Made by a program: the position numbers and the translations under genes | Notes under the pieces: generated by a model | Told to the model about the DNA's origin: nothing | What the model saw: only the letters and a program-made list of their open reading frames with translations | Database searches by the model: none | Assembly: GCA_001774395.1 (NCBI GenBank) | Contig: MEZX01000002.1 | Coordinates: forward strand, 302,101 to 366,100 | From: Candidatus Berkelbacteria bacterium RIFCSPLOWO2_01_FULL_50_28 | Lineage (GTDB): Bacteria > Patescibacteriota > UBA1384 > 2-12-FULL-50-11 | DNA length: 64,000 nt | Direction: 5' to 3' | Shown here: in pieces, positions 2,219 through 60,981 of the stretch | Numbering within the stretch: position 1 is the first letter of the stretch | How the letters are laid out: each line of letters begins with the position of its first letter

Positions 2219-2241
2219 GAAAATTGTAAATTGTAAATTGA
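2219..2241 (+). repeat. AT-rich motif GAAAATTGTAAATTGTAAATTGA
   Basis: Identical 21-mers on the minus strand at 43467..43488 and 47682..47703, where it encodes KIVNCKL at gene starts. Partial copy at 3515..3535 before rseP. Related TGAAAATTGAAAACTG at 1260..1300. Confidence 0.8.
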
Positions 2242-42516: not shown

Positions 42517-43491
42517 CTAACCCATTCTCCGGATAGATCGGGGGGCTTTGGCGGCTCGGAGGAGTTTGGCGAATTTGCGTTTCTGACGCTTGCGGTAGAT
42601 GAATAAGAGGACAAACAGGATTAGTAGTGCGATGCAAAGAATAATTAGCCACATCGGGAAGACATAGAAAACTAACTCCGAGCTCAGCTGGTCGCCTTTT
42701 TCGCCGTAGAGGATATTTAGGGTGGCGACATAACGACCGATCTTCAACGGCTGATCGTAGGATTGAGTAATTAAACGATCGGCCTTCGGAAAAATGTTTT
42801 TCTGATCGAAATCGATGCTGGCGGTCTTACGGCCGAAGATGTTAGTCAGGGTGATAAAGCCTTTTGGTTTGATATGGACAGAACCGTTGTTGTGGATTCG
42901 GGAATTGAACGTGATAGGTGAGTGTTCAAAACGTATTTTATCGACTTTAAATTCTTTAACATAAGCCGAGTAGCTGATATCACCAGCCACAGCTACCAGA
43001 ATTAAGCTACCAACCTTTGTTCTCGTAACGGCACCCGTGCCGCTAACTTTGTCGTTGTTTGCTAAATAGGCCAGAATTGAGCCGTATTGACCGCCTGGTT
43101 CAGCGTTGACGGGGATAGTGATAACGAACTTAACGACTTGTGTCTGTAAGGGGGTTAGGGTGAACTTCGACGGCGTAATCTTCGTCCAGTTTTTTAGGAA
43201 ATAAATTGAGTCATCTTCCGCGACGATTTTAGCTTGTCCGAGTTCGTTGCCAACGAACGGCTGGATTCCCATCTGATATTTTTGGACAATCCCGCTGGTG
43301 TTAACAACTTTCATTGAGCTCTTTATGGTATCGCCGGGCTTGGCAGAGAGCTCAAAGAGCGGTGGAGAAATGGAAACTTTTGCTTGGTCTACAGTCGCTT
43401 CCTGAGCCCGGATATTGGCTGGCAAGACAGAAAAAACTAATACCAAGACCACCAGCGCTAAAATTCTCAATTTACAATTTACAATTTTCAT
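42517..43491 (-). CDS. DUF916/DUF3324-like cell-surface protein, copy A'
   Basis: Signal peptide MKIVNCKLRILALVVLVLVF. Block ITIPVNAEPGGQYGSILAYL. C-terminal TM plus tail RKRQKRK. The first 7 codons are the intergenic-type AAAATTGTAAATTGTAAATTG motif. Confidence 0.55.
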   Translation of the reverse strand: MKIVNCKLRILALVVLVLVFSVLPANIRAQEATVDQAKVSISPPLFELSAKPGDTIKSSMKVVNTSGIVQKYQMGIQPFVGNELGQAKIVAEDDSIYFLKNWTKITPSKFTLTPLQTQVVKFVITIPVNAEPGGQYGSILAYLANNDKVSGTGAVTRTKVGSLILVAVAGDISYSAYVKEFKVDKIRFEHSPITFNSRIHNNGSVHIKPKGFITLTNIFGRKTASIDFDQKNIFPKADRLITQSYDQPLKIGRYVATLNILYGEKGDQLSSELVFYVFPMWLIILCIALLILFVLLFIYRKRQKRKFAKLLRAAKAPRSIRRMG

Positions 43492-43994: not shown

Positions 43995-45182
43995 CTAAAA
44001 CGTTCCGGTCGTAATATAGTCGGCGGTACCAGTATAGGCACCAGCGGCCTGAGTAGCGTCAGCCGAAAGCCGCCAACCGGCATAGGCGACATCACTTGAG
44101 ACACCAACGATGCTCGACATAATAGTTGACGGAGCTTCAGATGCGCCTATATCGGCAACAAGCTCAAATTTTTGAGTGCCACCGCCGCATTGCTCGGCCG
44201 CCGTATCCCAGCCAGCGTTAGCTGTGGCTGCGGCATCCCCGGTGGTGTCGTCCATACAGACAGCATAACCGTTGTTAGTAGCTGTAGCCCAGGCATTTGG
44301 GGTTGTTAGGTTACATGCTCCGTCACAGGTACCAACCGCAAAAGCATTGGCGCCACTGTCTAAGCCCGCTACTGTGTAGACTGTTACTGTGTAACCGGTG
44401 CCAGCGTTGGTTACCACGGTCAGTTGTTGGCAGATATCGTAAAAAGCTTCTGTCGAGATTACTGCGTAGGGAATTGTTGTGGAGGTTGAAGTAATTTTTG
44501 TTCCGCCGGTAGTTGTACAAGAACCGGACGTAACAGCGGCAACAGCAAGAGTTAAAACCTCGTCAAGAGCGGCCGAAACGGCTATGGCCGCGGTTACGAC
44601 AATGATTGTGTCTTGGGAATCTTCGTCGGTGGAATCTACCGCTAGATTGTAAGTGGCGGCTGTTGAGTTAACAATTTGCGTATTACCGGTGCCACCGCTG
44701 GTGGCGTGCGTTCCGATTTCGATGACGATTACAACACCCGCCGCCTCACCTGCATAAGTCCCACAAGCAGTAAAAGTGAAAACATCTGCGGCCACAGTGG
44801 TAATCTCGATCGTGTCGCCAGCGCAAGCGTCGGACGAATCTACAATCGTCTCTTCAACAGCGTTAACGGTGATGTCGTAATCAAGCGCATCAGTACTGGC
44901 AAAGCCAGATGTGTCAAAGCCTGAAGCAAAGGTGAGAACGAGCGTATCGCCGGCGCTAAAATCACCGCCGGTGGCTTGGTCTAAGGTGATGGTGTGGTTT
45001 GCGGCAGTCGAAGGGCGAGAATCGGTAATGACATCCTTTAGGCTGTCTGGTCGGGCGGCAAAGGCTTTTGGCACAGAGAAGCCAGACAACACGATGGCGA
45101 CGATGGCCAAAAATATTAACCCCCGCTCAAGCTTTACCCTCTGCGAGGTGAACACCTGAACTGATTTTGCTAAATAATACAT
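43995..45182 (-). CDS. secreted ~395-aa protein with shared C-terminal domain (WxL-like?), copy B'
   Basis: Start set at the internal MYYLAKSVQ..., parallel to the MYYKA start of 11974..13146. Signal peptide ...KAFA/ARP. C-terminus AGWRLSADATQAAGAYTGTADYITTGTF. ATG is 4 nt after the upstream gene's stop. Confidence 0.55.
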   Translation of the reverse strand: MYYLAKSVQVFTSQRVKLERGLIFLAIVAIVLSGFSVPKAFAARPDSLKDVITDSRPSTAANHTITLDQATGGDFSAGDTLVLTFASGFDTSGFASTDALDYDITVNAVEETIVDSSDACAGDTIEITTVAADVFTFTACGTYAGEAAGVVIVIEIGTHATSGGTGNTQIVNSTAATYNLAVDSTDEDSQDTIIVVTAAIAVSAALDEVLTLAVAAVTSGSCTTTGGTKITSTSTTIPYAVISTEAFYDICQQLTVVTNAGTGYTVTVYTVAGLDSGANAFAVGTCDGACNLTTPNAWATATNNGYAVCMDDTTGDAAATANAGWDTAAEQCGGGTQKFELVADIGASEAPSTIMSSIVGVSSDVAYAGWRLSADATQAAGAYTGTADYITTGTF

Positions 45183-45186
45183 GTCT

Positions 45187-46350
45187 TTAGAATGTCCCCG
45201 TTGTAATATAGTCGGCAGTACCGGTGTAGGCACCAGCTGCCTGGGCACCGTCAGCCGATAATCTCCAGCCTATCTTGGAGATATCCGTTACCCCAACGGC
45301 ACTCTGCATAATCGTTGAGGGCGTTTGAGGACCAGATAGATCGGCAACTAGTTCGAACTGCTGAGTACCTCCGCCGCACTGCCCAGCCGCTGCCCAGTCG
45401 GCGTTAGCAGTTTCAGCAGCGTTTCCGGTCGTGTCGTCCATACAGATAGCGTACCCATTAAAGGTGGCAGTTCCCCACGGAGCAGGATCGGTTAAAGTAC
45501 AAGCGCCATCGCAGGAACCAACTGCAAATGGATTAGCACCAGCATCCAAACCAGTGACAGTGTAAACGGTGACTGTATAACCCGTACCGGCATTGGTAGC
45601 TACGGTCAGTTGTTGGCAGATATCGTAAAATGTTTCTGTGGATATTGTCCCGTAAGGAATTGTTGTTGCCGTACTCGCAGCGGGTTTCGTGCCACCGGTG
45701 GTTGTGCAGTTTGCATCCGCGGCCAGACCGGCCACTGTTAGGGTCAAAACTTCATCGATTGTGGCCGAAATTGCTACACCTGCTGTTAGAACCAAGACAG
45801 TATCCTGAGAGTCATCGCCGTAACTGCCGGCCACATTCAATTGAGAGGTGCCCGCTGTGGTGTTGACAATCCGGGTGGTCCCGCCAGCGGCGTTGGAACC
45901 GAACTTCATGGTGATGGCCGTACTGGCCGCCTCAGCGGTGTAGCCACTACAGGCCGTGAAAGTCACCACCTGGGAAGCAAGCACATACTCGACACTATCC
46001 GTTGCGGTACAAGAAGCTATTAGTGTTTCGCTAGTGGCGCCGTTCACAAAGTCAACATCAGTCAATGTTAAGGTCGTCAAGTTGTACCCAGCCGGGAAGG
46101 TAACAATTACAGTTTCACCAGCAATGAAAGTAGTGCTTCCAGAGAGATCGAGAACTATCTCGTGGTTAGACGCAGTCGAAGGGCGAGAGTCACTCAATGT
46201 ATCCTTCAAACTGGTTGGGCGAACGGCAAAAGCGGATTGAATCCCGAAGGGCTGGGCAATTATAGCAATTAAGCTTAACACCGCTAAAACAACGCGGTAG
46301 CGATTAGCTAATTGCTTAGTTTTAGGGGCTACAAGGTAACCACGAACCAT
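45187..46350 (-). CDS. secreted ~387-aa protein with shared C-terminal domain, copy B2
   Basis: Paralogous to B'; N-terminal SLKDTLSDSRPSTASNHEI, C-terminal IGWRLSADGAQAAGAYTGTADYITTGTF. Start ambiguous between GTG at 46395 and ATG at 46350; ATG preferred. Confidence 0.5.
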   Translation of the reverse strand: MVRGYLVAPKTKQLANRYRVVLAVLSLIAIIAQPFGIQSAFAVRPTSLKDTLSDSRPSTASNHEIVLDLSGSTTFIAGETVIVTFPAGYNLTTLTLTDVDFVNGATSETLIASCTATDSVEYVLASQVVTFTACSGYTAEAASTAITMKFGSNAAGGTTRIVNTTAGTSQLNVAGSYGDDSQDTVLVLTAGVAISATIDEVLTLTVAGLAADANCTTTGGTKPAASTATTIPYGTISTETFYDICQQLTVATNAGTGYTVTVYTVTGLDAGANPFAVGSCDGACTLTDPAPWGTATFNGYAICMDDTTGNAAETANADWAAAGQCGGGTQQFELVADLSGPQTPSTIMQSAVGVTDISKIGWRLSADGAQAAGAYTGTADYITTGTF

Positions 46351-46431
46351 TAGAGCGACCTGATTTAACAATGATTTTATTTTTCCCCCTCGCACATACT
46401 ATATATACATTGAAGCGTATCCAACAGATGT

Positions 46432-46770: not shown

Positions 46771-47721
46771 TCATCTGCTCATAGCTCGCAAAAGTTTAGC
46801 TCGACGCCGGCGGAAGTACACGGTTGAACCAACCGCCAGAATTGCCAATAGCAGGACTATAATAATGAAGGGCCAGGGGATGGAGACAAATCGAGAACTG
46901 GCCACTAAGATTTTTCCGTCTTGCTTAAGAGTGAATTTGGCGTCGTAGACCCCGGGCCAGATTGTGCCGGTATAGGCGCTGATATATTGCCTCGAAGACT
47001 CGGGCATTAGGACCGAGCTCGCTAACTGGGTGACCATCTTTTGCTCACCCCAGGTTGGCGTTAAAGTCAGATCGCCATCAGCGAAAAAGAAAAATCCGGT
47101 CGGGTTACTAATTTCGGCCAGGAACGGTACCGGTGTGCTAACAACTATTTTCGGTGTCTGGAACGAGCTGATGCTCAAGCTTTCAATGGTTGGCTTCGTG
47201 GTCGAATCGACCGAAAGCAAAAACGAGGTGCTTAATGCTGGAATAATTCGGGTATTGGCGTTTTCGTCAAAATAATTTGCTGGTAGGCGAGCCTGGAAAA
47301 TCAGGGCGGCGCTGTAACCACCCGGGACAGTACCCTTGGGCGCTAGGATGGTTACCTGAACTTCTTTACTGCCTTGGGCGTCCAAAATGAGGTCTGGACT
47401 GTCGAGCGTTAGCCATTCAACACCTGAGTGTGGCCTTGGCTCGGCCGTAAATTCGGGTGATCCGAGGTTGTTAATGCCACTAATACTAAATTTAGAAGCG
47501 GACAATGGGATTGGTTCCTTCCCAAGATTGGTAACTTTAATCTTCACGATCGTTTTCTCGCCTGGTTTAACGGTCTGCTGAACTAAGCCAGGGCTAATTG
47601 ACAGTGTCGGGCTAATGGCGCCTTGGCCTGACGCTGACAAGGTGAATGCAAATACCGACATTAAGATTGCCAGCGTTAGAATTTTCAATTTACAATTTAC
47701 AATTTTATCGCGTTCGCTCAT
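46771..47721 (-). CDS. DUF916/DUF3324-like cell-surface protein, copy A2
   Basis: Start set at MSERDKIVNCKLKILTLAILMSVFAFTLSASG (signal peptide). Upstream ORF extension is AT-rich repeat sequence. Block VTILAPKGTVPGGYSAALIF. C-terminal TM plus tail RRRRAK. Confidence 0.5.
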   Translation of the reverse strand: MSERDKIVNCKLKILTLAILMSVFAFTLSASGQGAISPTLSISPGLVQQTVKPGEKTIVKIKVTNLGKEPIPLSASKFSISGINNLGSPEFTAEPRPHSGVEWLTLDSPDLILDAQGSKEVQVTILAPKGTVPGGYSAALIFQARLPANYFDENANTRIIPALSTSFLLSVDSTTKPTIESLSISSFQTPKIVVSTPVPFLAEISNPTGFFFFADGDLTLTPTWGEQKMVTQLASSVLMPESSRQYISAYTGTIWPGVYDAKFTLKQDGKILVASSRFVSIPWPFIIIVLLLAILAVGSTVYFRRRRAKLLRAMSR

Positions 47722-47892
47722 TTTTCGTTCTGGCGAACTCAAAATCATTGAATTTTCAATCATCAAATTTTAATTTATCGGTTTTACCACATTCTGTCAT
47801 TTGAAATTCAATCGAAATTTGAAATTCGCCTCTCGACTCCGCTCGAGGCGACCTGAGCACCGTCGAATGGTCGAAATTTGAAATTACTTTTC

Positions 47893-50800
47893 TCATGGAA
47901 AAGTTGCTGTTATCACATAAACGACGTCAGCTGTGTAATCGCCGTTAGCTTGGGTGTTCGATGGGTAGAGGCGGTAAGTAATATCGTTGGTGGCGCCTGT
48001 GGCCGGTGCGGTTCGGTCGGCAACTGGGTCGCCCGGGCCGGTGTGAGAAAAGCCAGCAAATTTAGCCCCGCCGTTGGTAAAACGATCAGCCGTGCCGCCG
48101 GTTAACGATGAGTCGTCGGTTGAATAGCCAAAGCCGTAAGACCCAGCACTGAAGGTTGTCGGAGTCGCGTTCGTACCCGTCCAATCGGCTAGTGTCACCC
48201 CACCGAAGCGGACATTAGTCATCGCTTGGGTTGACCAAGCGTAAACGACATAGCCGTTCAAGGCATTACTAGAAGCGGTCAGCGTCGATGTTTGATCACT
48301 GGGGTTGGAGCCGGGGTTAATGGTACCGAAGTCTTTCGAAGTGGAGTCCAGGCCTAGGGTTAGTGTCTGACCAAAAATCCAGTTAACGGTGTTACCGCAG
48401 TCGGTGTTGGTGCCGTCGCTAGCGATAATTGTTGATCCGCCAGAGGCATCAGATCGAGAGACATTAACATACGAGGTTTTTATTTGGTCGTTACCAACGG
48501 CAGCGACATTTAGGAGCCAACTACCGGTAATGGCGGAGTTTCTGAAGTATAGTCTCGTTCCAACCGCTTGCCCGTTCCAGTTCATATTGTTAATCGTATA
48601 GGTGGCGCCGGATTCGTATTCTACTTTCACACTAGCTGTGGTGATGGTGTAGTTGTTGGTGACGGTTGCGGCGGCGTTAAAGTCGACTCCTGCCACCCAG
48701 CCCGTTCGTTCACAGTCGGATGCAATCGTGCCGGAGCTGTTAGTAATGGTCAGGTCGTAAAACGCGTTGGTTGTCAGCATCCCACCAGACAAGGTTTGGG
48801 TACTGGTGCCACTCAAAGTGGTCGTGCCGGTATTAGCGGTAAAGGTACCCGAGTTAGCGTAGTTGCCTTTAATTGCAAATGTTGCGGCTGAGGAAGCTTG
48901 GTAAGTTTGATTAGCTCCGATAGTAAGGTTGCCGGTAACGGTGATGGCAGGATCACTCGTTTCAGCATTAACAACGGCTGATCCAGCGCCAGTCAGGGTG
49001 AAATTGCCTAAAACTTCAGTTCCAGCACATGCGTTATGTACTAAGTAGCTATTAGCATAGAAAAGGTTGTAGGTGTCAACTTCGATATCGTATACAGTTA
49101 CGGTCTCACTCACTTTTTGGATACTTGTAATAGGTTCCGTTCCAGAATAGGTGGCAAGCAGATCGCCAACCCGCAGTTCCTCAACAGCTTTTGAGCTGTG
49201 GTCAGCCATAATAAAGACGTGATTTGCTGTGGCCTGCACCTGGTTGTTAATGATGTAGTACGCATCTTTAGTCCCAATAACTGTTCCAACAACTGGAGAT
49301 ATGACTACTTGGTTACTACTGAGGTCGTAGGATTTGACAAGGTCACCTTCTTTAAGCTCTTCAATTGGCGTACTTCCCGTGGGGGTAAGTACTTGGGTCC
49401 CAGCAAGGAAGGACGTGGCCGAAGTGGTCATTGTGTAGGTCGGTGTACCAGAGGCCGGGCTGGTTTGGAGGTTGTAATAAGCTCTCGTGCCACAACCACT
49501 AGTGATGTTGGCGCTAGTGGTATTCTCGTAGCTAATCGTGGAAGCGTTGGCTGTAAATAACCCGGTCTTTGAGAAAGGAGTACCGCTACCAGTTAAGTGG
49601 TAAGTGCGATTGCCACCATCAAAGGTGGTGGCGGCCGAAGAAATACTCATGACGCTACTAACCGTAATATCTCCGGTTCCACCAGTTTGAGTGGTAATGG
49701 TAGCGGCGGGAGAAGCGGTAAACGTAAGGCTACTAAACGTCCAAGCGGTTGAGCCAGAAGTGGTGCCAAAGTTTTTAGCGCCTGCCACACTTTGGGTGAA
49801 TGTGCCGCCGGTGAGGTTGATGATACCTGCAGTTCCGGCGACGTTACCATTGACAGTAATATTCTGAGTACCGAGCAGCGATCCGGCAGTCATCGTCAGG
49901 TCGTTGGTAACAACCAAGGCGTCCTGAGGTGCCCAGCCACCGCCCGAACCGCTGAAAGTTAGGTTGTAGAATGAGTCACCAGCAGATTGGATAGTCTTAC
50001 TAGTGGCGGTTGCGTTAAAGATAAAAGTAGATGTCCCAGCGTTAAACACCGCATTACTTTCATTCGTAAAATTTGTTCCGACATAGACTGTTGAGGATCC
50101 GGCGGTAAAAATCGGTGCCCCGGTATTACCAGCTACTATAAAAGTCCCGACAGTAAGAGTTTGGTTGGCGGTGTCAAACTCACTATTTCGAGAGTTTCCC
50201 CAGCCAAACCGTAACGATCCGGTGATGGTAGTTGTTCCTGCCAAGGAGATTTTATAGCCGGTGCTGATATTGTCTGTAATGGTGGTATTGTAGGTAAACG
50301 CCGGGAGGGTGAAGTTGGCAGATCCGCTGAAGTCGATGCTTCCATTACCGAGTCCAAAAGTTCCAGCAGGGTCAAGACTGAAACTCCCCCCAGTTTTGTT
50401 CATACCTTTTGAATTAAAGTCAAAGGTTCCTGTCCCGAGAGTGAATGTGCCGTTATGGGCAGCACCGTTGTTTGTTATCAGTTGTGTGGTGTTGCCACTT
50501 TGGCCAACGGTCAAGTTGTAAAATCTGGGCTCCCAAGCATTTGTCGAGCCATTTTTGATAGTTTTTGTACCCGTCCCATTCATCACAACCGTTGAGGTAC
50601 CTTCGACGATACTGACACTGTCTTGAGCAACTGCACTAGTATCCCAATTACCGGAAACCGTAATAATTGAAGCCCGTTCTGTGAGAGACCAGGTGCCGGC
50701 GTTACCTGTCAGGTTGCCGCCAATAGTTAGAGCGTAGTTAAAGGTAGTATTGGTATCAAAAGTGCCGTTAGTAATATCGAAATTGTTAGTGACGCTCATC

Positions 50801-53800
50801 GCGTCTTGGAGCGTCCAGCCCCCACCCGAACCGTTGAAAATAATATTATATAATGCTGAGCCGCCAGTCATGGTTCCAGTGAGGGTTCGGCCGGTACTCG
50901 TTGAGCTGAAGGTCACTGTCCCTGTGCGAGCGGTAAAGGTACCGGAATTTGACCAGTTACCCCCAACTGTTAAGGCATAAGGAGTGGCCGTCACATCAAA
51001 CTCACCCGCGGTGATAGTGAGATTACCACCATTATCTGTAAGGGTTGCTTCCTCTAGCACATAAACCTCGGAACCGTTATTAACGGTTAGGTGGTGGTAG
51101 GTAGCGGACTGAACGGTTGAGTTGCCACCAGCGTTGTTGCCGGTGTAGGCGAAAGTGGAGGTAGCGGCAGTTAAGGCTCCAGCCGGGGAGGCGAGCAGTT
51201 GGAATGAGTCACCGGTTGTGCCACTTAAAGTCCAGGTGCGGTTACCAGCATCTAACGTTGTGGTGGCTCCAGAAGAATCACCGGATTTTCCAACCCTCAA
51301 AATGTCACTGACGGTTATTCCACCACTTCCACCTGTTTGGGTGGTAATAGTTCTTCCTGCTGCTGGGGCACCGAGCGAGTTAGAAAAAGTTAGATCATAA
51401 AATGTCCAAGCAGTACTGCCACTTGTTGTGCCAAAGTTTTTATTAACCCCTACCCGCTGTTCAAACGTCCCCCCAGTTAAGCTGATAACCCCTGAGGTTC
51501 CAGCGACATTGCCGTTGACGGTGATGTTTTGGGTACCGTTCAAGGTGCCAGCGGTCATCGTGAGGTCGTTAGCAATTGCCACGGCTGCATCAGGTTGGAC
51601 GGTTGCGGCTCCGTTCACGATCACGTTGTAAAGGGTCTGGCTGTTAGGAGAGTATGTCGAGGTACCAGTCGACGGGGCAAAGGTGAATGTTGAAGTGCCG
51701 TCATCGACCGCTAATGTTCCGGTGCCGTTGACGAACTTAACATGGCCGGTTGCTGAGATGAAAGCGGTTTGGAAATTGGCAGTATGAGTTCCGCCATTGG
51801 AGTTGACGTAAAAAGTGTCGGTAGCACTCGCGCGATTGAAGGTGGCGGTGCTTGATCCCCAATTCGAACTCGTGGCGCCATTGTCGGTTGAGTCGCCCTG
51901 GACCCATTTATCTGCGTTAATGGTGTAGTTTTGGGTATTAAAGGTTGCCGTTCCCGTAGCGTCTGCTTTTACCTGCGTGTATCCGCTGGTAGTAATATTA
52001 CCCCCGACATTAAAAGTCACCAGTCCCGCGACATCGCTGTGCATCAGGATACTCCAGGTGCCGTAGTTGGTGGCACCAGTGACGGTAACAGTCGCGGCGC
52101 TTAGTTTACGCAACTGGAAGGTGGCATTAGAACCAGATAGGGTTGCTCCTGTTCCTAATACTAAGTCGGCTCCAGCTGTTCTAAACAGTTCAAATTCACA
52201 GGTGACCGAACACGTCATCGTGCCGCCACTGGCATCACCGATGGTTAAAATGCCAAAGACATCGGTTCGGGCTCTGGTCATCGTGGTTGTTTTGGTGTTG
52301 TAGGCAACGGTCAGGTTTTCAAACTGGGTCGTACCCGTACCTGCGATATTGCCGTCACCATTAAGCTGAACGGTTGAGCTGTCGCGGGTGAAGACACCGT
52401 TTAGGTCCACCGTCCAGTGGCGACTGACGGTGATTGTTGAAGTCCGGGCTCGGAAAACAGCACTAGCACTACCAGCGATTGCGACATCACGGGTAACGTT
52501 AACGGCGTGGTTACTAGTAGTGGTGTCAAATGTTCCGAGAGTAATAGTAAGATCGTTAGTGATGATGACCGCGCCACTAGGTGTTACTGTTCCCCCAGAG
52601 CCGTTCAAGATCACGTTATATAGAGATTGACCATTCGGAGCGTAAGTCTTAGAACCGGAAGTATGGACCCAGGTAATTGTCGAAGTTCCAGGGGTTACCG
52701 TTATAGCGGGAGTGCCGTTAATAAACAGAACGGCGCCGGAAACCGTCACTGACGAGCTACCAAGATTAAGGGTACTGCTTGTTCCGCCGTAGGTAGCGTG
52801 AGGAAGGATGGAGTTGGTTGTACTACTCAAAGTAACGGTGCTAGAGCCGAAGCCAACAGCAACCGGGCCATCACGCCCAGCATTGCCATCACCGAACTGC
52901 AAAGTAGCCGCGGTTAGAGCGAAGTTTTGGGTGTTGACAGTTGTTCCAGTTACAGCCGTATTGGCCGCAACATAGACACTTCCGGTAGTTGTAATATCAC
53001 CAGCGAAATTATAAATGCTGTTATTAGCAGTTGCGTACGGTTCAATGGCCCAGTTCCCGTAATTGCCACCGGCCATTGTGAAAGTGGAGCCAGCCCCTCC
53101 GTTAATAAGGAAGCTCATTACAGAGCCACCAGTGAGCGTGGTAGCGGCGCCAAAGACGAGAGGAGTTTTGCTAATACTACCAGCGAGGTTAATGTACGAG
53201 GCGGCCTGACTGACCGTTCCCCCATTCAGGGTCATCACTCCATTAACTTGGTTCATACTGGTGCCGACGGTAATCGTTTTACCCGAGCCGGCCAACTGAA
53301 GGTTGTACATCTGGCTAGCAGAGTTGAGGGTACCGGTGTTGTCAGCCGTACCAGTCATATTAACCGTTGAGGCAGTGCCTTCGGTGAATTTGTTGCCAGT
53401 ATCGTTAAAATCGTTACCAACAGTAATTGTTGAACCGTTACCAATCAGAACAACGCCGGCAGTGTTAGCTAGCGTCAGGTCTCGAGCGACGTTAACGGCG
53501 TAGTTTGAGCCGGTCGTATCAAGCGATCCGTTGGTAACTGTCAGGTCTCGGCCGGTGCCGGTTGTACCTTCAAGGACGAAGGTTTCGGAGGAGTTGTTGG
53601 GGATTAGGTCGTAGTAAGTTGCCGACTGAATAGTTGTACTGCCAGCACCGTTATTGCCGGTGTAGGTGAAGGTTGAGCTGGCGGCGGTTAGTGATCCGGC
53701 GGGGGAAGCAAGTATTTGGAAAGAGTCACCAGTAGTACCAGACAGAGTCCAAGTGCGATTGCCGGCATCGAAGTAAGTGCCACAACCGTCAGCGGCCTTA

Positions 53801-56800
53801 CCTATTCTCATAACATCGCTAACTGTTATTCCCCCTGATCCGCCGGTTTGAGTCGTGATGAAAAATGCGGCACAGATTGGGGAGTTAGGATTCGAAAATG
53901 TCAGATCGTAGAATGTCCAAGCGGTTGAGCCGCTCGTTGTCCCGAAGTTCTTGGCCGCCCCAACTCTTTGCTCAAAAGTCCCACCCGTCATAGTAATCGT
54001 TCCTGCGGTGCCAGCAACGTTACCACTAACAGTTACATTTTGTGTTCCATTCAAGTCACCAGCCGTAATAGTAAGATCATTAGTAACGGTTAGAGCGTCA
54101 ACAATAGTGATATCGTCGCCAGTATCGTCAATAATAAGGTTGTAAAAACTCTGGCCGGCAGAGGTCATGTCGCCATCGGCAGTTGCGTTACCCATTGTTA
54201 CAGTTGATGTCCCAGGGGTGATCACGGCGGTATCGAGATTTTCCCAGTTACTACCTATGGCGTAGCTCGCCGAGCCCAAACTCATTGCAACTGTGCCGGC
54301 AGTGGATGTAAAACGGAAAAGTGCTGTCACGATCCAGGCAGTATTGTTGACGGTATTATCAATTGTTAGTGCACCGGTAATATTATTAGTAGTTACAAAT
54401 GTATAAACATTCATTGTTCCGGCTCCGATTGTGTAGGTTTGAGTTCCAGACGCTGGGCGGAAGTAGAGGTTACCAGCATAAGTATAGGCAGGGATGGTGG
54501 TGCTGCCAGTCATGGAATAATAGAAGTTGGGGACACTAATTGTGCCAGTGTATGAATAGGTAGGAGTTGCATTAGTAACATGGAAGCAACCTCCACTGCC
54601 GCCAATAGTACCCGCAATTGTTAATGTGGTGCCGGTACCGCCGTCGTAATAAATCGCTTGGGCGCAGCCGGCAACGCTGTTGAGCGTTCCTTGGATGTTG
54701 AGATCACTGATGACATGGATATCTGTTGCTGTCTGTGTGTAAATAGCTCCACCAGAAATAGTTAATTTGTTAAAGTGAGTGCCCGAACCGCCGTTGGTGG
54801 TAATCGTCTTAGTTGTTCCCGAAAGGACGACTATTGAAGTCCCATAGCCAGTGGCCTGAGTTGTCCAAGTTGAGTTGCTTTGCGTCCAGTTGCCGCTAAC
54901 AGTAATAGTTGAGGCCTGGGCTTTATAGGTAGTGCCGGAGGAAAATGTTAGATCGCCTGCAACCGTTAGGGCGTAGTTACCAGTTGAATCGGCATCTACC
55001 GTGCCATTAGTTAAGTTGAAATTACTGGCAGTCTCAACTGCTGCGCCGTACGTCCAGCCACCACCGACGCCGTTGAAAGTGAGAACATAAAACTTGCCTG
55101 TTGCACCAGTCATTGTCCCAGTGAGAGTTTTACCGGTAGTAGTGGCGTTGAAAGTGACGGTTCCAGAATTAGCTAAGAATGTTCCAGAGTTAGAGTAACT
55201 ACCGCCGATGGTTAAGGCGAAGTTGCCGGCAGTCACGTCTAATGTACCGGCCGTAATAGTTAGGTTGTTCGAAGTGATTGTTGCGGCTTCTAGGACGTAG
55301 ATCTCAGAGCCGTTGTTCGGAGTTAGATTGTAGTAAGTGGTTGATTGAATGATTGTGTTGCCAGCGCCGTTATTGCCAGTGAAGGTAAAAGTGGATGTAG
55401 TGGCCGTAAACGTTGGACTGGCGGTGAACACAAAAGGATTACCGTTGGTTCCCGAAAGAGTGTATGTTTTTGCGTCAGCGTCAAATGAAAGCGTATCGGC
55501 GGTGGCGTCAAGCGTAAAAATACCTGAAACGGTAATCCCGCCACTTCCGGTCGCTGCGATTGCTGTTCCTGCTGAGTACGAAGCAGTTAGGGAAAGGTTG
55601 TTGAAAGTCCAAGCAGTGTTGCCCCCAAATAAAACGGCTCCTGATCCACCAAGAGTAAGAGTTCCGCCGGTTAAATTGATCGTCCCGTTACCTGTTAGGT
55701 CGGGATCGGCACCACCGTCGCCGACGCTAAGGTCTTGGGTCCCCAGTAACGATCCCGCCGTCATGGTTAAATCGTTGGTAGCCGTAACCGCCGCGCTTGG
55801 TGTCCACTCGCCGCCCGAACCGTTAAATGTAAGGTTGTAGAAAGCCGAAGCACTGGTCATGGTCCCCGCTAGAGTATTGCCAGTATCGGTCGCGTTGAAT
55901 GTTATGGTACCGGATTGAGCGGTAAAAGTGCCGGAGTTAGAATAATTGTTGCCGATCGTCAGGGCGTAGTTAGAAACTGTCACATCAAGAATGGCACTAG
56001 CGTGAGTGATGGTGAGATTATTTGTTACAACAGTGTCTCCTTCCAAAACGAAGGTATCAGCGGCGTTTAGCTCCAGGTCATAATACGAGCTGGTCATTGA
56101 TTGGATGGTCGTATTCCCTCCAGCATTAGCTCCGGTGTAATAGAGTTTAGAAGTACCACCTGTTAAAGCTCCGGCGGGGGAAGCCAAAAGTTGGAACGGA
56201 TCACCGCCAGTACCAGATAGGGTCCAAATTCTATTGCCGGCGTCCAAGGTTGCCGTACCTGCGTCACCGCTCACACCAACTTTCAAAATCCCACTAACTG
56301 TAATCCCGCCAGAGCCGCCTGTTTGAGTAGTAAAGGTAATTCCTGACACACCGGTGTTGGAAAAAGACAGACTACTAAACGTCCAGGCCGTAGAGCCCGA
56401 CGTGGTACCAAAGTTTTTAGAGGCAGCCGCAGTTTGAAGAAATGTTCCACCAGTTAAGCTAAAAGCTCCGGCTGTGCCAGCGACGTTACTATTAGCCGTG
56501 ACGTTTTGAGTTCCAAGGAGCGTTCCGGCCGTCATCGTTATATCGCCATTTATGTTAACGGCCGCGCTTGGTGTCCACTCACCGGCAGCGCCGTTAAAGA
56601 TGAGGTTGTAGAAAGACGACGAACCGCTCAGAGTTCCTCCGAGCGTATTGCCCGTATCTGTGGCGTTGAAGGTGACGGTGCCACTACGAGCCGTGAAGGT
56701 GCCGGAGTTAAGGTAATTGCCGCCGATTGTGAGGCCCCAGTTGGAGCCACTAACCGCATCCAAAATAGCAGATGCCTGAATGGTTAAGTTTCCAGTTGCT

Positions 56801-59800
56801 GTAGTAGCTTCCTCTAAAACATAGGTGTCGAAGGAACAGATCGCGGAGCAGCCTATATCAAGATTGAAATATGAGCCAGCCCCGCCTCTTTCTATAGTTG
56901 TATTTCCCGCCCCGTTCTCACCCCGATAAGCAAAGGTTGATGTCGAACCAGTTAACGACCCTGCTGGAGAAGCCAGGACTTGGAAGGGATCACCAGCAGC
57001 GCCGCTTAATGTCCAAGTACGGTTACCGGCATTGAGAGTTGTTGTCGCTCCGGCGGCGTCGCCGGACGCACCGACTCGAAGAATTGAAGAGACGGTGATA
57101 CCGCCAGAACCACCGGTCTGGGTGGTTACAGTAAACGGACTGGAAGCGTGAGAATTAGAGAAGGTCAGACTAACAAAAGTCCAGGCACTGGAACCGGAAG
57201 TCGTACCAAAATTCTCCGCTGCCGCTACCCTTTGCGTAAAGGTACTTGAGCCGCTCATGGTAATTGCTCCAACTCCAGTGGCGCTACCGTTTACTGTCAC
57301 ATCAACCGAACCGCTCATCGTCCCGCCAGTATTGGAAAGATCATTGGCAACCTGAACAGCATTAGTGCTTAGCGAGAGCGTACTGGCGCCAGAATGAGTG
57401 AGGTTATAGAATTGCTTCGTACTGCCGGTACCGCCGGAAATGATCGTTTGGGTACCGCTGGTGGCGGCAAAATCAACTGTGCCGGTGTCAGCGTTAAAGG
57501 TGCCACCGATACTATTTGTCCAGCTACCTTTGACGGTTAAATTGGCGGCGCCCATCGTCAGTATCCCCTGGGATTGTGAAAACGTGACACTGCCGTTGAA
57601 CGTGACAGTTTGGCCGTTAAGATTGGTAATATTGGCTCGACTACAGCAGTCGCTTACCGTCAGATTGCCGGTAAAGGTTGTAGTCCCTTGGAAAATAAGA
57701 CTATAGGTATTTGGGAGGGAGTTAACCAGGCCGGAGTTATAGGTATAGGCGAGTAGGTTAACGTTGGCAGAGCCGCCGTGGAAGTAGAGCGAGCCGTTAC
57801 CAGTTCCCCAAGTTCCCGCAAGAGAAAGTGGATTTGTCGGCGGAGAAGCCATAAAGAAGGTTTTTGAATTCAGGTCAAAGGTACCGGCCCCTAAGGTCAG
57901 CACGTTTTCAACAGCGAACGATTGTTGCATCTGGGTTGTTTTACCGACGGCCTGACCGACGTTCAAGTTCCAAAAACGGCCTTCCCACGTATTAGTTGCC
58001 CCTGTCGTTATCGTCTTCGTTCCGGTTCCGTCCATGATAACCGTCGAGCCACCCTCAACAATATTGACGCTATCTTGGGCAATCGCTGATGTATTCCAGT
58101 TCCCTGAAACAGTGATAGTCGAGTTACGCTCATTGAGTGTCCATGTTCCTGAGTTACCGGTAAAATTGCCGCCGACAGTTAGGGCATAGTTAAAAGTACT
58201 GTTAGTGTCGAGGGTCCCATTAGTAATATCGAAGTTGTTAGTGACACTCATCGCATCTTGGAGGGTCCAACCACCACCAGAGCCGTTGAAGATGATGTTG
58301 TAAAAAGATTGGGCGTTGGAGGTAATGGTTTTGCCGGTGGCGACGGCATTGAATGTGACAGTGGAAGTTCCAGGCGTAACGGTTATTACCCCGGTGCCGT
58401 CTTTGTATTTTAGGTTGCCTGCTATCGAGACCGATGAAGATCCCAAGTTCAAGGTATGTGTGCCACAGTTCGGACCAACATAAAGTGCGTCGGTAGTGCT
58501 TGTTAGCGATACTACAGATGCATTGAAACTAACTGCCCACGAGCCGGTTCTCGTTGGTGCACAGTCAGCGATAGAAAAAAGGAGAGCAGTAATAGAGTAG
58601 TTACTAGCAGTTGTTGTAAAAGCACTTCCCGTTACACCGTTAGCCGCTTGGAGTTTCATTACCCCCGTCGTGGTAACGTTTCCGCCAAGTTGCCAAGTAT
58701 TGCTGTTGGATGCCGTGTAAGTGTCAACACCCCAGGATCCGTAGTTTCCTCCGGGGATCGTTATCGTCAAGCTAGCAGCATCCGGTCGGAAATACAGATC
58801 TCGATTACCTGTAAGTGTCGTTGCTGAGGCAAAGACTACCGGCGTGCAAGAAATAGTGCAATGAAGATTCAACCAAGACGAGCCTCCTTCGGCGACTGTT
58901 CCGCCATTGAAAGTTAAAACATTATAAACATCGAAGCTGTTGGTTGAGATAGTTGTTGTGAAACCCGATGACCCCCACTGGAGATTATAATACTGACTAC
59001 CACTTGCAGATGTGAACGTCCCGGTACCGGACATAATTACTGTTGAAGTATCGTGGGCAAACTTGTCGCCCGTATCATTGTAATGTCGGGCGATATTGAG
59101 TGTCGAGCTACCAGCGGTGTAAGAAACTCCAGCCGTGTTAGCGAGTGTAAAGTCACGAGTAACAGTTAGATTTTGGTTGCCGGCCGTGATAGCGCCGTTG
59201 GTGCCATTAAAATCATTGGCCACCTCGACAGCGTTACTGAATGTCCAGCCACCAGCGGCGCCATTAAATGTTAGGTTGTAGAATTTGCCAGTCGCGCCGG
59301 TCATCGTGCCGCCGAGGGTTTTGCCGGTGGCAGTGGAGGAGAAAGTTACCGTGCCGCTGGCGGCGGTGAAAGTGCCGGAATTGCTCCAGTTGCCGGAAAC
59401 GGTGATGGCGTTGGTGGTGGAGACGGTCAAAGTGCCGCCGTTATCAATGGTGACCCCAGCGACCGTGACCGAAGCGGTGTCCTCGGTGATATTGTGGGTG
59501 TTAAGAATTTGAACCGTATCGCCCGCTTGAGGCGTAGTGAACCCACAGTTCGTCCAGGAAAGGGCGTCGCTCCAGTTACCGGTGGCGGCTGATTGACAGG
59601 CGTTGTCGGAGGCGATTAACCACGACCTGGGTTCCACCCACTTCGTGGAATTTTCAATTTTCGAATTTTGTCGGACTTCGCCTCCATAGCTTCTTCGCTG
59701 CGCTTCGTCGCTATCAGTTTTCAATGAATTTTCAATGCTTGAATTTTCAATTTCCGCGGGCTTGCCCGCCGTAGTTGCCTCCTTCGCCGAAGTGGCTACG

Positions 59801-60981
59801 GAAGCCGAGTCAACGGAGGCGGGGCCGAGTTCAAATAAAAACGGTGAGATGTTAGGGGTTTTGAAGGAATAAGTGAGGGAGTAAGTTTGACCGGCCTTGG
59901 CATCGATTGTCCAGTGTAGTTTAGTTGGGCTATCTGCGGTCTTTGTTACCTTCGCTTCTGTATCTTTAATCTCAAAATTATTTGGTACAAATTCATCCAA
60001 ACCGTAACTGCCGTCTTTGGTGGCTTCGAAATTGAGGGTGTAGTCGTAATCGACGGGTGGATAGGTTCGGGTGGCGCCGACGCGTTGGAGATAGAAATCT
60101 TGATTGGCTTTGACGCTAAACTGGTCGTGGAGGGTGCGAGTGCCTTCTCCGGCCTTAGCAATGATTTTAACTTTGTAGTTGCCCTCAGCTTTTGGTTGAT
60201 AGTTGGCCTCGTAGTCGGGGCGATCAGTTTTACCGTAAACTTCACAGTCTTTATTGACTCGAACGGTGCCGTTGGCAGTGTCGAGGGTGGTGATTTTGCC
60301 GTTTGGGTCAGTGACCTCAACGGTCATTGCGGCCGTACAAACCATTTTGCCCCTATCGTCGAGCACGGCCAGGCTAAAGAAAGCCTCTTTGCCAACTGGA
60401 TAGACGGCGTAGTCAGGGTTGAAAGCTAACACGCCCCAGAGAACTTTTTGGTCGTTGACCACTTGATCGGTATTTTTCTTGAGGGTTTTGATATCGTAGG
60501 CGCCGGGTGAAAGCTGCTGATTGTTGTCGCTAATCTTTATTTCATCTGGGCTAGCAGTGTCAATCTTGACTTGGTCAGTGATTGTCTCGCCACCAACAGC
60601 TTTAGTTAGAGAGATTTCGGTTTCGCCGACGGCTGTCTTCGGTTGCTCTAATTTAACAGTGTCTTCGGCCGAAACAACTTCGTAATTACCCTTGAAATAC
60701 TCGTTGGGTTGGCTACTACGAGCGGCGACCTCCGCAACGGGAATAAACTGCGGATCAAGTTGGATAGTCTCGGCAACCGTGGTCTGGCTGACGTTGTTAG
60801 AATTAACAACTTCGTTAAGTTGGGCGCGAATTGGTCCAAAGAAGGCCAGCACCCCCAAACCGATGACGAGGGCGAACAGAAAAGAGAAAAACCTGACCGG
60901 TCGAAGGGCATATTCAGACAACACAGTTGCCCGCGTCTGTCGGAATATTCCGTCAAGTCGAGTTTTTCCTGGTATTGGCAT
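47893..60981 (-). CDS. giant membrane-anchored modular surface protein (4,362 aa), paralog of the 27.9-kb gene
   Basis: ATG at 60981, preceded by GGGGAGAGGGGGAG. N-terminal KTRLDGIFR motif plus TM. Same beta-helix-like repeat vocabulary as the larger giant (GGNYSNSGTFTA..., LTGGTFEQRVGAAKNFGTTSGS...). Shared C-terminal domain ending YVITATFP. Confidence 0.7.
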   Translation of the reverse strand: MPIPGKTRLDGIFRQTRATVLSEYALRPVRFFSFLFALVIGLGVLAFFGPIRAQLNEVVNSNNVSQTTVAETIQLDPQFIPVAEVAARSSQPNEYFKGNYEVVSAEDTVKLEQPKTAVGETEISLTKAVGGETITDQVKIDTASPDEIKISDNNQQLSPGAYDIKTLKKNTDQVVNDQKVLWGVLAFNPDYAVYPVGKEAFFSLAVLDDRGKMVCTAAMTVEVTDPNGKITTLDTANGTVRVNKDCEVYGKTDRPDYEANYQPKAEGNYKVKIIAKAGEGTRTLHDQFSVKANQDFYLQRVGATRTYPPVDYDYTLNFEATKDGSYGLDEFVPNNFEIKDTEAKVTKTADSPTKLHWTIDAKAGQTYSLTYSFKTPNISPFLFELGPASVDSASVATSAKEATTAGKPAEIENSSIENSLKTDSDEAQRRSYGGEVRQNSKIENSTKWVEPRSWLIASDNACQSAATGNWSDALSWTNCGFTTPQAGDTVQILNTHNITEDTASVTVAGVTIDNGGTLTVSTTNAITVSGNWSNSGTFTAASGTVTFSSTATGKTLGGTMTGATGKFYNLTFNGAAGGWTFSNAVEVANDFNGTNGAITAGNQNLTVTRDFTLANTAGVSYTAGSSTLNIARHYNDTGDKFAHDTSTVIMSGTGTFTSASGSQYYNLQWGSSGFTTTISTNSFDVYNVLTFNGGTVAEGGSSWLNLHCTISCTPVVFASATTLTGNRDLYFRPDAASLTITIPGGNYGSWGVDTYTASNSNTWQLGGNVTTTGVMKLQAANGVTGSAFTTTASNYSITALLFSIADCAPTRTGSWAVSFNASVVSLTSTTDALYVGPNCGTHTLNLGSSSVSIAGNLKYKDGTGVITVTPGTSTVTFNAVATGKTITSNAQSFYNIIFNGSGGGWTLQDAMSVTNNFDITNGTLDTNSTFNYALTVGGNFTGNSGTWTLNERNSTITVSGNWNTSAIAQDSVNIVEGGSTVIMDGTGTKTITTGATNTWEGRFWNLNVGQAVGKTTQMQQSFAVENVLTLGAGTFDLNSKTFFMASPPTNPLSLAGTWGTGNGSLYFHGGSANVNLLAYTYNSGLVNSLPNTYSLIFQGTTTFTGNLTVSDCCSRANITNLNGQTVTFNGSVTFSQSQGILTMGAANLTVKGSWTNSIGGTFNADTGTVDFAATSGTQTIISGGTGSTKQFYNLTHSGASTLSLSTNAVQVANDLSNTGGTMSGSVDVTVNGSATGVGAITMSGSSTFTQRVAAAENFGTTSGSSAWTFVSLTFSNSHASSPFTVTTQTGGSGGITVSSILRVGASGDAAGATTTLNAGNRTWTLSGAAGDPFQVLASPAGSLTGSTSTFAYRGENGAGNTTIERGGAGSYFNLDIGCSAICSFDTYVLEEATTATGNLTIQASAILDAVSGSNWGLTIGGNYLNSGTFTARSGTVTFNATDTGNTLGGTLSGSSSFYNLIFNGAAGEWTPSAAVNINGDITMTAGTLLGTQNVTANSNVAGTAGAFSLTGGTFLQTAAASKNFGTTSGSTAWTFSSLSFSNTGVSGITFTTQTGGSGGITVSGILKVGVSGDAGTATLDAGNRIWTLSGTGGDPFQLLASPAGALTGGTSKLYYTGANAGGNTTIQSMTSSYYDLELNAADTFVLEGDTVVTNNLTITHASAILDVTVSNYALTIGNNYSNSGTFTAQSGTITFNATDTGNTLAGTMTSASAFYNLTFNGSGGEWTPSAAVTATNDLTMTAGSLLGTQDLSVGDGGADPDLTGNGTINLTGGTLTLGGSGAVLFGGNTAWTFNNLSLTASYSAGTAIAATGSGGITVSGIFTLDATADTLSFDADAKTYTLSGTNGNPFVFTASPTFTATTSTFTFTGNNGAGNTIIQSTTYYNLTPNNGSEIYVLEAATITSNNLTITAGTLDVTAGNFALTIGGSYSNSGTFLANSGTVTFNATTTGKTLTGTMTGATGKFYVLTFNGVGGGWTYGAAVETASNFNLTNGTVDADSTGNYALTVAGDLTFSSGTTYKAQASTITVSGNWTQSNSTWTTQATGYGTSIVVLSGTTKTITTNGGSGTHFNKLTISGGAIYTQTATDIHVISDLNIQGTLNSVAGCAQAIYYDGGTGTTLTIAGTIGGSGGCFHVTNATPTYSYTGTISVPNFYYSMTGSTTIPAYTYAGNLYFRPASGTQTYTIGAGTMNVYTFVTTNNITGALTIDNTVNNTAWIVTALFRFTSTAGTVAMSLGSASYAIGSNWENLDTAVITPGTSTVTMGNATADGDMTSAGQSFYNLIIDDTGDDITIVDALTVTNDLTITAGDLNGTQNVTVSGNVAGTAGTITMTGGTFEQRVGAAKNFGTTSGSTAWTFYDLTFSNPNSPICAAFFITTQTGGSGGITVSDVMRIGKAADGCGTYFDAGNRTWTLSGTTGDSFQILASPAGSLTAASSTFTYTGNNGAGSTTIQSATYYDLIPNNSSETFVLEGTTGTGRDLTVTNGSLDTTGSNYAVNVARDLTLANTAGVVLIGNGSTITVGNDFNDTGNKFTEGTASTVNMTGTADNTGTLNSASQMYNLQLAGSGKTITVGTSMNQVNGVMTLNGGTVSQAASYINLAGSISKTPLVFGAATTLTGGSVMSFLINGGAGSTFTMAGGNYGNWAIEPYATANNSIYNFAGDITTTGSVYVAANTAVTGTTVNTQNFALTAATLQFGDGNAGRDGPVAVGFGSSTVTLSSTTNSILPHATYGGTSSTLNLGSSSVTVSGAVLFINGTPAITVTPGTSTITWVHTSGSKTYAPNGQSLYNVILNGSGGTVTPSGAVIITNDLTITLGTFDTTTSNHAVNVTRDVAIAGSASAVFRARTSTITVSRHWTVDLNGVFTRDSSTVQLNGDGNIAGTGTTQFENLTVAYNTKTTTMTRARTDVFGILTIGDASGGTMTCSVTCEFELFRTAGADLVLGTGATLSGSNATFQLRKLSAATVTVTGATNYGTWSILMHSDVAGLVTFNVGGNITTSGYTQVKADATGTATFNTQNYTINADKWVQGDSTDNGATSSNWGSSTATFNRASATDTFYVNSNGGTHTANFQTAFISATGHVKFVNGTGTLAVDDGTSTFTFAPSTGTSTYSPNSQTLYNVIVNGAATVQPDAAVAIANDLTMTAGTLNGTQNITVNGNVAGTSGVISLTGGTFEQRVGVNKNFGTTSGSTAWTFYDLTFSNSLGAPAAGRTITTQTGGSGGITVSDILRVGKSGDSSGATTTLDAGNRTWTLSGTTGDSFQLLASPAGALTAATSTFAYTGNNAGGNSTVQSATYHHLTVNNGSEVYVLEEATLTDNGGNLTITAGEFDVTATPYALTVGGNWSNSGTFTARTGTVTFSSTSTGRTLTGTMTGGSALYNIIFNGSGGGWTLQDAMSVTNNFDITNGTFDTNTTFNYALTIGGNLTGNAGTWSLTERASIITVSGNWDTSAVAQDSVSIVEGTSTVVMNGTGTKTIKNGSTNAWEPRFYNLTVGQSGNTTQLITNNGAAHNGTFTLGTGTFDFNSKGMNKTGGSFSLDPAGTFGLGNGSIDFSGSANFTLPAFTYNTTITDNISTGYKISLAGTTTITGSLRFGWGNSRNSEFDTANQTLTVGTFIVAGNTGAPIFTAGSSTVYVGTNFTNESNAVFNAGTSTFIFNATATSKTIQSAGDSFYNLTFSGSGGGWAPQDALVVTNDLTMTAGSLLGTQNITVNGNVAGTAGIINLTGGTFTQSVAGAKNFGTTSGSTAWTFSSLTFTASPAATITTQTGGTGDITVSSVMSISSAATTFDGGNRTYHLTGSGTPFSKTGLFTANASTISYENTTSANITSGCGTRAYYNLQTSPASGTPTYTMTTSATSFLAGTQVLTPTGSTPIEELKEGDLVKSYDLSSNQVVISPVVGTVIGTKDAYYIINNQVQATANHVFIMADHSSKAVEELRVGDLLATYSGTEPITSIQKVSETVTVYDIEVDTYNLFYANSYLVHNACAGTEVLGNFTLTGAGSAVVNAETSDPAITVTGNLTIGANQTYQASSAATFAIKGNYANSGTFTANTGTTTLSGTSTQTLSGGMLTTNAFYDLTITNSSGTIASDCERTGWVAGVDFNAAATVTNNYTITTASVKVEYESGATYTINNMNWNGQAVGTRLYFRNSAITGSWLLNVAAVGNDQIKTSYVNVSRSDASGGSTIIASDGTNTDCGNTVNWIFGQTLTLGLDSTSKDFGTINPGSNPSDQTSTLTASSNALNGYVVYAWSTQAMTNVRFGGVTLADWTGTNATPTTFSAGSYGFGYSTDDSSLTGGTADRFTNGGAKFAGFSHTGPGDPVADRTAPATGATNDITYRLYPSNTQANGDYTADVVYVITATFP
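49034..49413 (-). other. Hint (hedgehog/intein) domain embedded in the giant protein; bacterial intein-like (BIL) domain or mini-intein
   Basis: S-FLAGTQVLTPTG...IEELKEGDLV...VYDIEVDTYNLFYANSYLVHN, followed by A-C. About 128 aa. Interrupts the YYNL...TYT...LT(V/G) repeat unit. Local GC is visibly lower than the flanks. Confidence 0.6.
59655..59750. repeat. copy of the ~100-bp intergenic repeat element, lying in-frame inside the giant CDS
   Basis: AATTTTGTCGGACTTCGCCTCCATAGCTTCTTCGC...GCTATCAGTTTTCAATGAATTTTCAATGCTTGAATTTTCAAT aligns with 3370..3475. Encodes a low-complexity linker with three IENS units. Confidence 0.7.

Follow-up and report, generated by a model that had tools for sequence, protein, structure and literature searches.

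An intergenic-type mosaic repeat lies in-frame within a giant surface-protein gene of a Candidatus Berkelbacteria bacterium

A short repeat of the kind that otherwise occupies spacers between genes lies in-frame within a giant surface-protein gene of Candidatus Berkelbacteria bacterium RIFCSPLOWO2_01_FULL_50_28, in a 64,000-nucleotide stretch of contig MEZX01000002.1 (assembly GCA_001774395.1) that was analyzed as a whole and is hereafter called the window. We consider it likely (roughly 80%) that an intergenic-type repeat was placed in this gene and that it is not the scar of a gene fusion. Under the course of events that we propose, the genome would carry short mosaic interspersed repeats in which A/T heptamer arrays (TTGAAAA/TTGTAAA) enclose a discrete GC core of ~40 to 60 nt, and the usual location of these repeats would be transcribed operon spacers: between rpsB and tsf, between frr and the next gene, and, in a second genome, between groES and groEL and upstream of a tRNA. 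A composite of heptamers, core 1, and heptamers, next to a second GC module, would have reached the boundary between the last immunoglobulin (Ig)-like domain and the beta-helix body of the giant protein, either by insertion or by copying through recombination between heptamer arrays; only versions that are free of stops and divisible by three in length would have survived, so that the repeat would now be translated as a linker.

The repeat in the giant gene and its spacer copies

From its N-terminus, the giant protein has a transmembrane (TM) helix, tandem Ig/MG-like beta-sandwiches (aa ~109-393), and the inserted linker; the beta-helix-type repeats of the body follow, and a Hint-like domain lies close to the C-terminus (Pfam, AF2, and Foldseek). 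The insert, in gene order, consists of module 2, heptamers, core 1, and heptamers, and is a mosaic in that module 2 adjoins the heptamers and core 1 and has its own match elsewhere. The features on which the analysis rests are as follows.

47893..60981, minus strand: giant open reading frame (ORF), 4362 aa, uninterrupted (ORF list and translation)
59827..60981, minus strand: N-terminal region, aa 1-385, with a cytoplasmic tail, a TM helix (aa ~28-59), and tandem beta-sandwich domains
about 59653..59811, minus strand: complete in-frame insert, aa 391-443, 53 aa (protein alignment and ortholog linker DNA)
59754..59823, minus strand: module 2, GC-rich, directly upstream (gene sense) of the heptamers, translated (V)DSASVATSAKEATTAGKPA
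59716..59753, minus strand: upstream (gene sense) A/T-rich heptamer array AAATTGAAAATTCAAGCATTGAAAATTCATTGAAAACT, translated EIENSSIENSLKT
59670..59715, minus strand: core 1, 46-nt and GC-rich, GATAGCGACGAAGCGCAGCGAAGAAGCTATGGAGGCGAAGTCCGAC, translated DSDEAQRRSYGGEVR
59647..59669, minus strand: downstream heptamer array AAAATTCGAAAATTGAAAATTCC, translated (Q)NSKIENS
2240..2285, plus strand: rpsB-tsf spacer copy of core 1, with heptamers before it at 2216-2239
3379..3424, minus strand: copy of core 1 in the spacer that follows frr, beside a heptamer array at 3425-3475

The first-pass annotation of the window had described 59655-59750 as homologous to an element in the spacer after frr and, inverted, to one in the spacer after rpsB, and alignments bear this out. 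Against the frr spacer, the local alignment score is 72, whereas shuffled queries gave 16.2 +/- 2.5 with a maximum of 33, and a 25-nt block (TTTGTCGGCTTTCGCCTCCATAGCT, at most three mismatches) occurs at exactly three sites in the window versus none in 100 shuffles. The core at 59670-59715 agrees with the frr copy (3379-3424) at 35 of 46 positions and with the inverted rpsB copy (2240-2285) at 34 of 46, the two spacer cores being 98% identical to each other; a repeat finder pairs 59664-59725 with 2230-2291 (77%) and 2228-2292 with 3372-3436 (94%). Beyond the core, the giant-gene and frr copies have TTGAAAATT(C/G)AAGCATTG in common, and the upstream array of the giant gene shares TTGAAAATTSAAGCATTG with the frr spacer copy; because this flanking similarity enters the heptamers, the size of ~100 bp first given for the element is fair. 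The linker translation in the same annotation (AEIENSSIENSLKTDSDEAQRRSYGGEVRQNSKIENS, aa 409-445) is correct and in-frame. The repeat itself had also been found, but the inserted block is larger than was supposed, running from ~59653 to 59811 (53 aa) and taking in module 2, which had been missed.

Words of the AATTTTCAAT type number 36 in the window versus 6.2 expected and, four isolated single matches excepted, cluster in or at the edges of spacers and at one site inside the giant ORF. Both spacer cores of the window carry a TGA in the frame used by the giant gene; the giant-gene copy is open in that frame. The sequence itself shows that a perfect GAAAATT tandem gives TGA whichever frame is read, and the arrays within the giant ORF keep a 7+8 = 15-nt register (AAAATTGAAAATTCN, read as KIENS) that avoids these stops. 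Tryptic peptides distinctive of the insert, taken from the predicted translation, are TDSDEAQR, SYGGEVR, and EATTAGKPAEIENSSIENSLK.

A metagenome scan for the core returned 21 stretches, three of which are real, the others being chance matches to the 19 specified bases. One of the three (L011) lies between groES and groEL, and another (L023) is that same region, identical, on a second contig; the remaining one (L014) lies between a membrane-protein gene and a tRNA, and the L011 and L014 sites are both on one 309-kb contig of a second metagenomic genome. Core 1 is thus present in five copies, three in the window and two on that contig, each with a core of 46 to 47 nt and ~100 nt long with its arrays; ~10 kb and 3 kb of sequence past the window ends held no additional copies. 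All five cores begin with TGATAGCG(A/G)C, continue with a variable interior of 13 to 14 nt, and finish with GAGCTATGGAGGCGAA(AG/GT)CCGACAAAATT, and their ends (TGATAGCG...CCGACAAAATT) are sharp. The giant-gene core has GAAGC where the other copies read GGAGC. The orientation relative to the heptamers is the same in all five, and the copies are open in four of six frames.

An AlphaFold (AF2) model of residues 1-620, built on a shallow 6-sequence alignment (mean pLDDT 52), places the TM helix at residues 28-59 and the beta-sandwich domains at 109-393 (pLDDT 60-90), the latter resembling tandem MG/Ig-like domains (Foldseek, low TM-scores). A coil segment at 394-444 (pLDDT <50, about 27) coincides with the insert at aa 391-443, which, judging from the model, is probably a disordered 53-aa spacer. 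In this model, all three insertion sites of the protein family fall in loops or the linker, between strands or domains; the other two, known from homologs, follow residues ~199 and ~341 and lie between strands in the model. On this weak evidence, the placement agrees with survival at permissive sites only, where such a block would be tolerated.

Empty and differently filled sites in orthologous genes

Searched with the N-terminal domain, GTDB representative genomes yielded 320 related loci, widespread in Candidate Phyla Radiation (CPR) bacteria and DPANN archaea, and the nearest homolog by protein search is annotated as Candidatus Berkelbacteria. Among these loci, six are close relatives; the window's gene order of ClpP, trigger factor, PBP, and giant gene recurs in four to five of the six, which identifies them as positional orthologs. 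Their N-terminal identities to the window protein are 76% (L025), 66% (L026), 63% (L027, the same as L001), 49% (L028), and 39% (L030). Comparison at the DNA level left out the homologs P0002 and P0006, which were not traced to DNA.

The first-pass annotation had suggested that orthologs be compared for presence or absence of the element, and the linker does vary among them. L025, the closest ortholog, has four residues (LETN) at the place of the window's 53 and retains a possible two-unit heptamer seed (TTAGAAACTAACAATCCC) at the linker position, and L028 has a short linker and no insert. L001/L027 carries a homologous heptamer array without the core, seen as a clean 45-nt gap in the DNA alignment (CGAAATT directly followed by CAAAATTC, versus GAAAACT, then GATAGC...GTCCGA, then CAAAATTC in the window). 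In L030, the same arrays surround a different GC core, termed core 3 (TCTGCCTGCCCCTCCTAGCCCAGAGAGCGAAGTGGGGGAC). The best feature of the finding is this natural series, in which a single orthologous site occurs empty, with the array only, with core 1, or with core 3.

Related modules also stand in other loops of these proteins. In the N-terminal domain of L026, a different loop contains core 3 (88% over 34 nt) together with heptamers, and a second heptamer block of L001 occupies that same loop. A 36-nt part of module 2 (59776-59811) is 94% identical to L002 11381-11416; that stretch is inserted in-frame (SDSASVATSAKGAALAKEG) in P0005, a protein that is 30% identical, at a further loop. The downstream array (AAAATTCGAAAATTGAAAATTCC) is identical to that of L030 at 23 of 23 positions, beside flanking coding DNA that is only 62-63% identical, and to that of L001 at 21 of 23, beside flanks that are 76% identical. 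Full array identity beside flanks of 62-63% is not what one would expect of simple vertical descent.

Mobility, gene conversion, and other explanations

The first-pass annotation had proposed that a mobile repeat resembling a MITE (for miniature inverted-repeat transposable element) was retained as an in-frame linker. The orthologous sites that are filled, empty, or differently filled, together with the modules in other loops, favor that idea, but terminal inverted repeats and a demonstrable target-site duplication are lacking. We infer that the cores, or composites of core and array, are mobile or are copied via recombination and that the allele series reflects gain, not loss.

Several observations weigh against this reading. 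Some orthologs may have lost the block instead of others having gained it. Two word-index searches with the insert peptides found no other carrier proteins, a negative that may reflect low-complexity queries, since P0005, which has 10 residues in common with the first query, was not returned; a full HMMER search of 1.84 billion representatives with the insert peptide found only the giant protein itself. The core had no match in the genome_contigs collection and only chance matches among viral contigs, where module 2 had none. Core 1 was recovered at only five sites, the two outside the window being on the single 309-kb contig, so its copy number is modest or the family is narrow. No terminal inverted arms were found at the core or element boundaries of the three window copies (0 pairs in the rpsB-tsf copy), and no transposase was found among the window ORFs scanned. 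At the insertion junction (GAAAACT, core, and CAAAATTC in the filled site versus CGAAATT and CAAAATTC in the empty L001 site), the flanks are themselves heptamer repeats, so a target-site duplication is not distinguishable from the array. Folding of both strands of every copy, of module 2, and of core 3 gave no significant stability (z = +0.18 for core 1 alone, +0.9 to -2.1 for whole copies on either strand, +0.35 and +0.93 for the whole element, and -0.4 to -0.65 for module 2), and an alifold of the five copies held no covarying pairs.

Targeting of the IS200/IS605 type was considered separately and rejected, as no constant tetranucleotide lies 5' of the core. A diversity-generating retroelement, which Avd-like genes nearby and the variable core interior might bring to mind, was rejected as well, since the analysis turned up no reverse transcriptase and the differences lack adenine specificity.

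A serious, if somewhat unlikely, alternative to transposition is that the heptamer tract grew in place by slippage or duplication and that GC cores were then copied into it by gene conversion between arrays. The cores always lie inside heptamer arrays and in one orientation, terminal inverted repeats are absent and no unambiguous target-site duplication is seen, and gene conversion would account both for the fixed orientation and for the missing terminal repeats. Flank similarity reaching into the arrays fits the same course, as do arrays that are alike in three orthologs at the site around cores that differ, the possible two-unit seed of L025 at the same place, and the tandem duplication of a 55-nt GC module between two assemblies of the same population (described below). 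Yet gene conversion alone cannot account for blocks of array and core at three loops, nor for arrays reaching new sites, and no donor identical to the giant-gene core was found. A doubtful extension of these ideas is that heptamer arrays serve as landing pads or recombination substrates that swap GC cassettes (core 1, core 3, and module 2) into permissive loops and linkers of CPR/DPANN surface proteins. If this were true, cassette swapping would be a repeat-driven means of remodeling, lengthening, and possibly switching giant adhesin-like proteins in ultra-small symbiotic bacteria, and the same arrays would also supply the signal-peptide n-regions of other secreted proteins.

It is improbable that the block is retained for a function at the nucleic acid level, as an internal promoter, RNA element, protein-binding site, or phase-variation tract. 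Elsewhere in the window, arrays do adjoin the starts of genes, and in two signal peptides they are translated as the n-region; 7-nt repeats in surface-protein genes are classic contingency loci. However, sigma-70 promoter and terminator scans neither called the arrays nor showed enrichment, and no significant structure was found. Rfam, applied to the whole window at gathering thresholds and permissively to the copies, gave only a chance match to a Dictyostelium RNA (E = 0.22). Furthermore, the arrays in the ORF are imperfect (the 7+8 register), and no polymorphism in repeat number or length occurs in the giant gene among five assemblies.

The first-pass annotation had also raised the possibility that recombination at the repeat fused a separate, TM-anchored gene of ~400 aa to a giant beta-helix gene, and this we regard as very improbable. 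An intergenic-type element located exactly at a domain boundary, whose spacer copies have a stop in the frame used in the giant gene, would suit such a fusion. Nevertheless, in the homologs that reach far enough, down to ~30% identity and with or without the element, the motif ...PNISPxLFxLGP... runs straight into the start of the body (W-x-E-x-R-x-W-x-I-A-x-D), so the two regions formed one gene before the repeat arrived. With all orthologs joining the N-terminal region directly to the body, fusion is refuted; synteny moreover shows the same gene across the loci, and neither a start codon nor a signal peptide follows the element.

Hardly credible at all is an assembly artifact, in which a metagenome-derived contig was misjoined or collapsed at the repeat to give a chimeric ORF: short repeats are classic points of misassembly and the source is metagenomic, but 13 contigs carry the exact 4362-aa protein (among them NCBI GCA_001776175.1 and assemblies from ENA and JGI, of several samples), the 13,089-nt gene has no mismatch to the window in five fetched loci (at least five assemblies, from different samples and assemblers), and orthologs in other genomes show the same architecture across the junction. 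Outside the giant gene, the NCBI assembly (L105/L118, GCA_001776175.1 MEZW01000023.1) has a short gap in place of ~90 nt of the PBP gene (window 61268-61359), owing to which PBP is not annotated there, and a run of N fills that place in L107.

Neighboring modules, known repeat families, and implications

Besides the giant gene, translation of a spacer-type array seems to supply the positively charged signal-peptide n-region in two minus-strand paralogs, 42517..43491 and 46771..47766. These are 25% identical overall and have in common the N-terminal peptide KIVNCKL[RK]IL (window 43469-43500 and 47680-47706), encoded by the heptamer array AAAATTGTAAATTGTAAATTGA[GA]AATT directly before a hydrophobic signal/TM segment. 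A separate family of ~60-nt repeats (GATTTTGAGTTYG..AGAACGAAAAATGAGCG...GCGATAAAATTG plus heptamers) is present at window 47690-47745, upstream of ORF 46771..47766, and at L113 15735-15805, in the spacer next to gatB. Just past the giant-gene stop (47820-47880, minus strand), GAAATTT repeats enclose a GC hairpin (GCCTCGAGCGGAGTCGAGAGGC) that could plausibly act as the terminator of that gene; no other module folds significantly (z = -2.75 for the hairpin). In the same population, ~5.3-5.4 kb outside the window on the side of its start, L113 (16214-16323) has two tandem copies and L114 (16214-16268) one copy of a GC-rich, 55-nt module in a spacer (AATTTCCCCCTCGACTTCCCTCGGCTCCGCTCGGGACAGGTCGCTCGGGGTAAAC); it is related to the hairpin module at 47828-47852, and the two assemblies are otherwise 100% identical. 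This difference within one population indicates that such modules are dynamic on short timescales.

Positions 41175-47766 form a lower-GC island (0.42) between two giant genes, with NYN-domain, GIY-YIG, and two Avd-like (23S rRNA IVP) genes and two pairs of paralogs; no reverse transcriptase was detected in it. Within the island, L107 and L109 differ from the window by 19 substitutions in ~120 nt (46234-46355, the N-terminal part of the minus-strand ORF 45187..46395) and otherwise match it over 15-17 kb, a short N run in L107 aside. The 19 changes are not adenine-specific, and the patch could be hypervariable or a gene-conversion tract with the neighboring paralog 43995..45248. The second giant ORF (13157-41068, 9303 aa) and the 4362-aa gene have beta-helix-type repeats in common at the DNA level (families D1-D15); the second ORF has another N-terminal region and carries no heptamer/ENS insert. 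In the 4362-aa protein, aa 3857-3983 form a Hint/pretoxin-HINT-like domain (Hint_2, E = 1e-6), which points to a C-terminal cassette of an autoproteolytic or polymorphic-toxin type.

The orthologous locus of GCA_024654065.1 (L001) contains a Y1_Tnp (IS200/RAYT-like) gene at 3098-3766, between trigger factor and PBP. Hairpin repeats, CCCCATAAAGGCC(A/T)GGCCTTT, stand on both sides of this gene (3030-3075 and 3770-3805), and a third copy lies upstream of the giant gene (5885-5925). This flanking repeat (CCATAAAGGCCAGGCCTTT) differs from core 1, and the REP/RAYT-like system is unrelated to core 1 in sequence.

Among known systems, the best-known hosts of in-frame "selfish" repeats are Rickettsia and a few further pathogens; Correia elements are grouped with the intragenic MITE-type repeats of bacteria; the REP/BIME elements of enterobacteria, with their RAYT (Y1) transposases, are strictly extragenic; and simple-sequence contingency loci in surface-protein genes consist of short tandem repeats whose number varies. 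Rickettsia palindromic elements (RPEs), according to the summary in PMC10969869 (after Ogata et al. 2000), are spacer repeats of ~100-150 bp that also lie in-frame in genes with intact products. The repeats described here resemble RPEs as short interspersed repeats with both spacer and in-frame coding copies, the latter in an intact ORF, with several families per lineage, and, judging from the shallow model, probably with insertion in loops and linkers. They differ in that core 1 is not palindromic and forms no stable hairpin, interchangeable GC cores are set in A/T heptamer arrays, the host is a CPR (Berkelbacteria-like) bacterium, and in-frame copies are so far confined to one protein family, not many housekeeping genes. 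The ERIC/RU elements (PMC2759123, PMC2229807) and the QMITEs of Coxiella (PMC5896051) are small nonautonomous repeats, mostly of transcribed spacers, with occasional in-frame ORF fusions. Like these and the Correia elements, the present repeats are small spacer repeats occasionally found in-frame; the others have terminal inverted repeats and usually target-site duplications, whereas here there is no terminal inverted repeat. REP/BIME elements are likewise mosaics of short modules in intraoperon spacers, and module 2 recalls the REP pattern (a 20- to 40-nt imperfect palindrome with GTAG) in having GTAG followed by a weak, imperfect palindrome, with 17-nt arms at 59765-59781 and 59807-59823 that are 76% complementary. 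Core 1, in contrast, has neither feature and sits in a gene, and no Y1_Tnp was seen in the window. Contingency loci share short A/T-rich tandem units, not a multiple of three, in or 5' of surface-protein genes; the giant-gene tract differs in being imperfect, in having complex GC cores, and in showing no length variation among the five assemblies.

The repeats are small, noncoding, dispersed, and multicopy, as classical MITEs are, but with no terminal inverted repeats and no palindrome in core 1, we do not file them as members of the MITEs, REPs, or RPEs. Their behavior comes closest to that of RPEs and of the insertions that ERIC/RU, Correia, and Coxiella QMITE elements occasionally make within genes (PMC10969869, PMC2759123, PMC5896051), and they may be viewed as a CPR counterpart of the in-gene repeats of Rickettsia. 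Within the limited coverage of the literature collection searched, no description of such elements in CPR genomes was found.

The same behavior in a lineage of the Candidate Phyla Radiation would show that new protein segments arise by this route more generally, and here the elements are structurally different, mosaic, and accompanied by filled, empty, and differently filled alleles in orthologs. For annotation, translated spacer repeats may underlie low-complexity linkers of the KIENS/ENS type and odd N-termini of CPR proteins. The locus thereby offers a concrete case for the diversification of giant surface proteins in episymbiotic bacteria.

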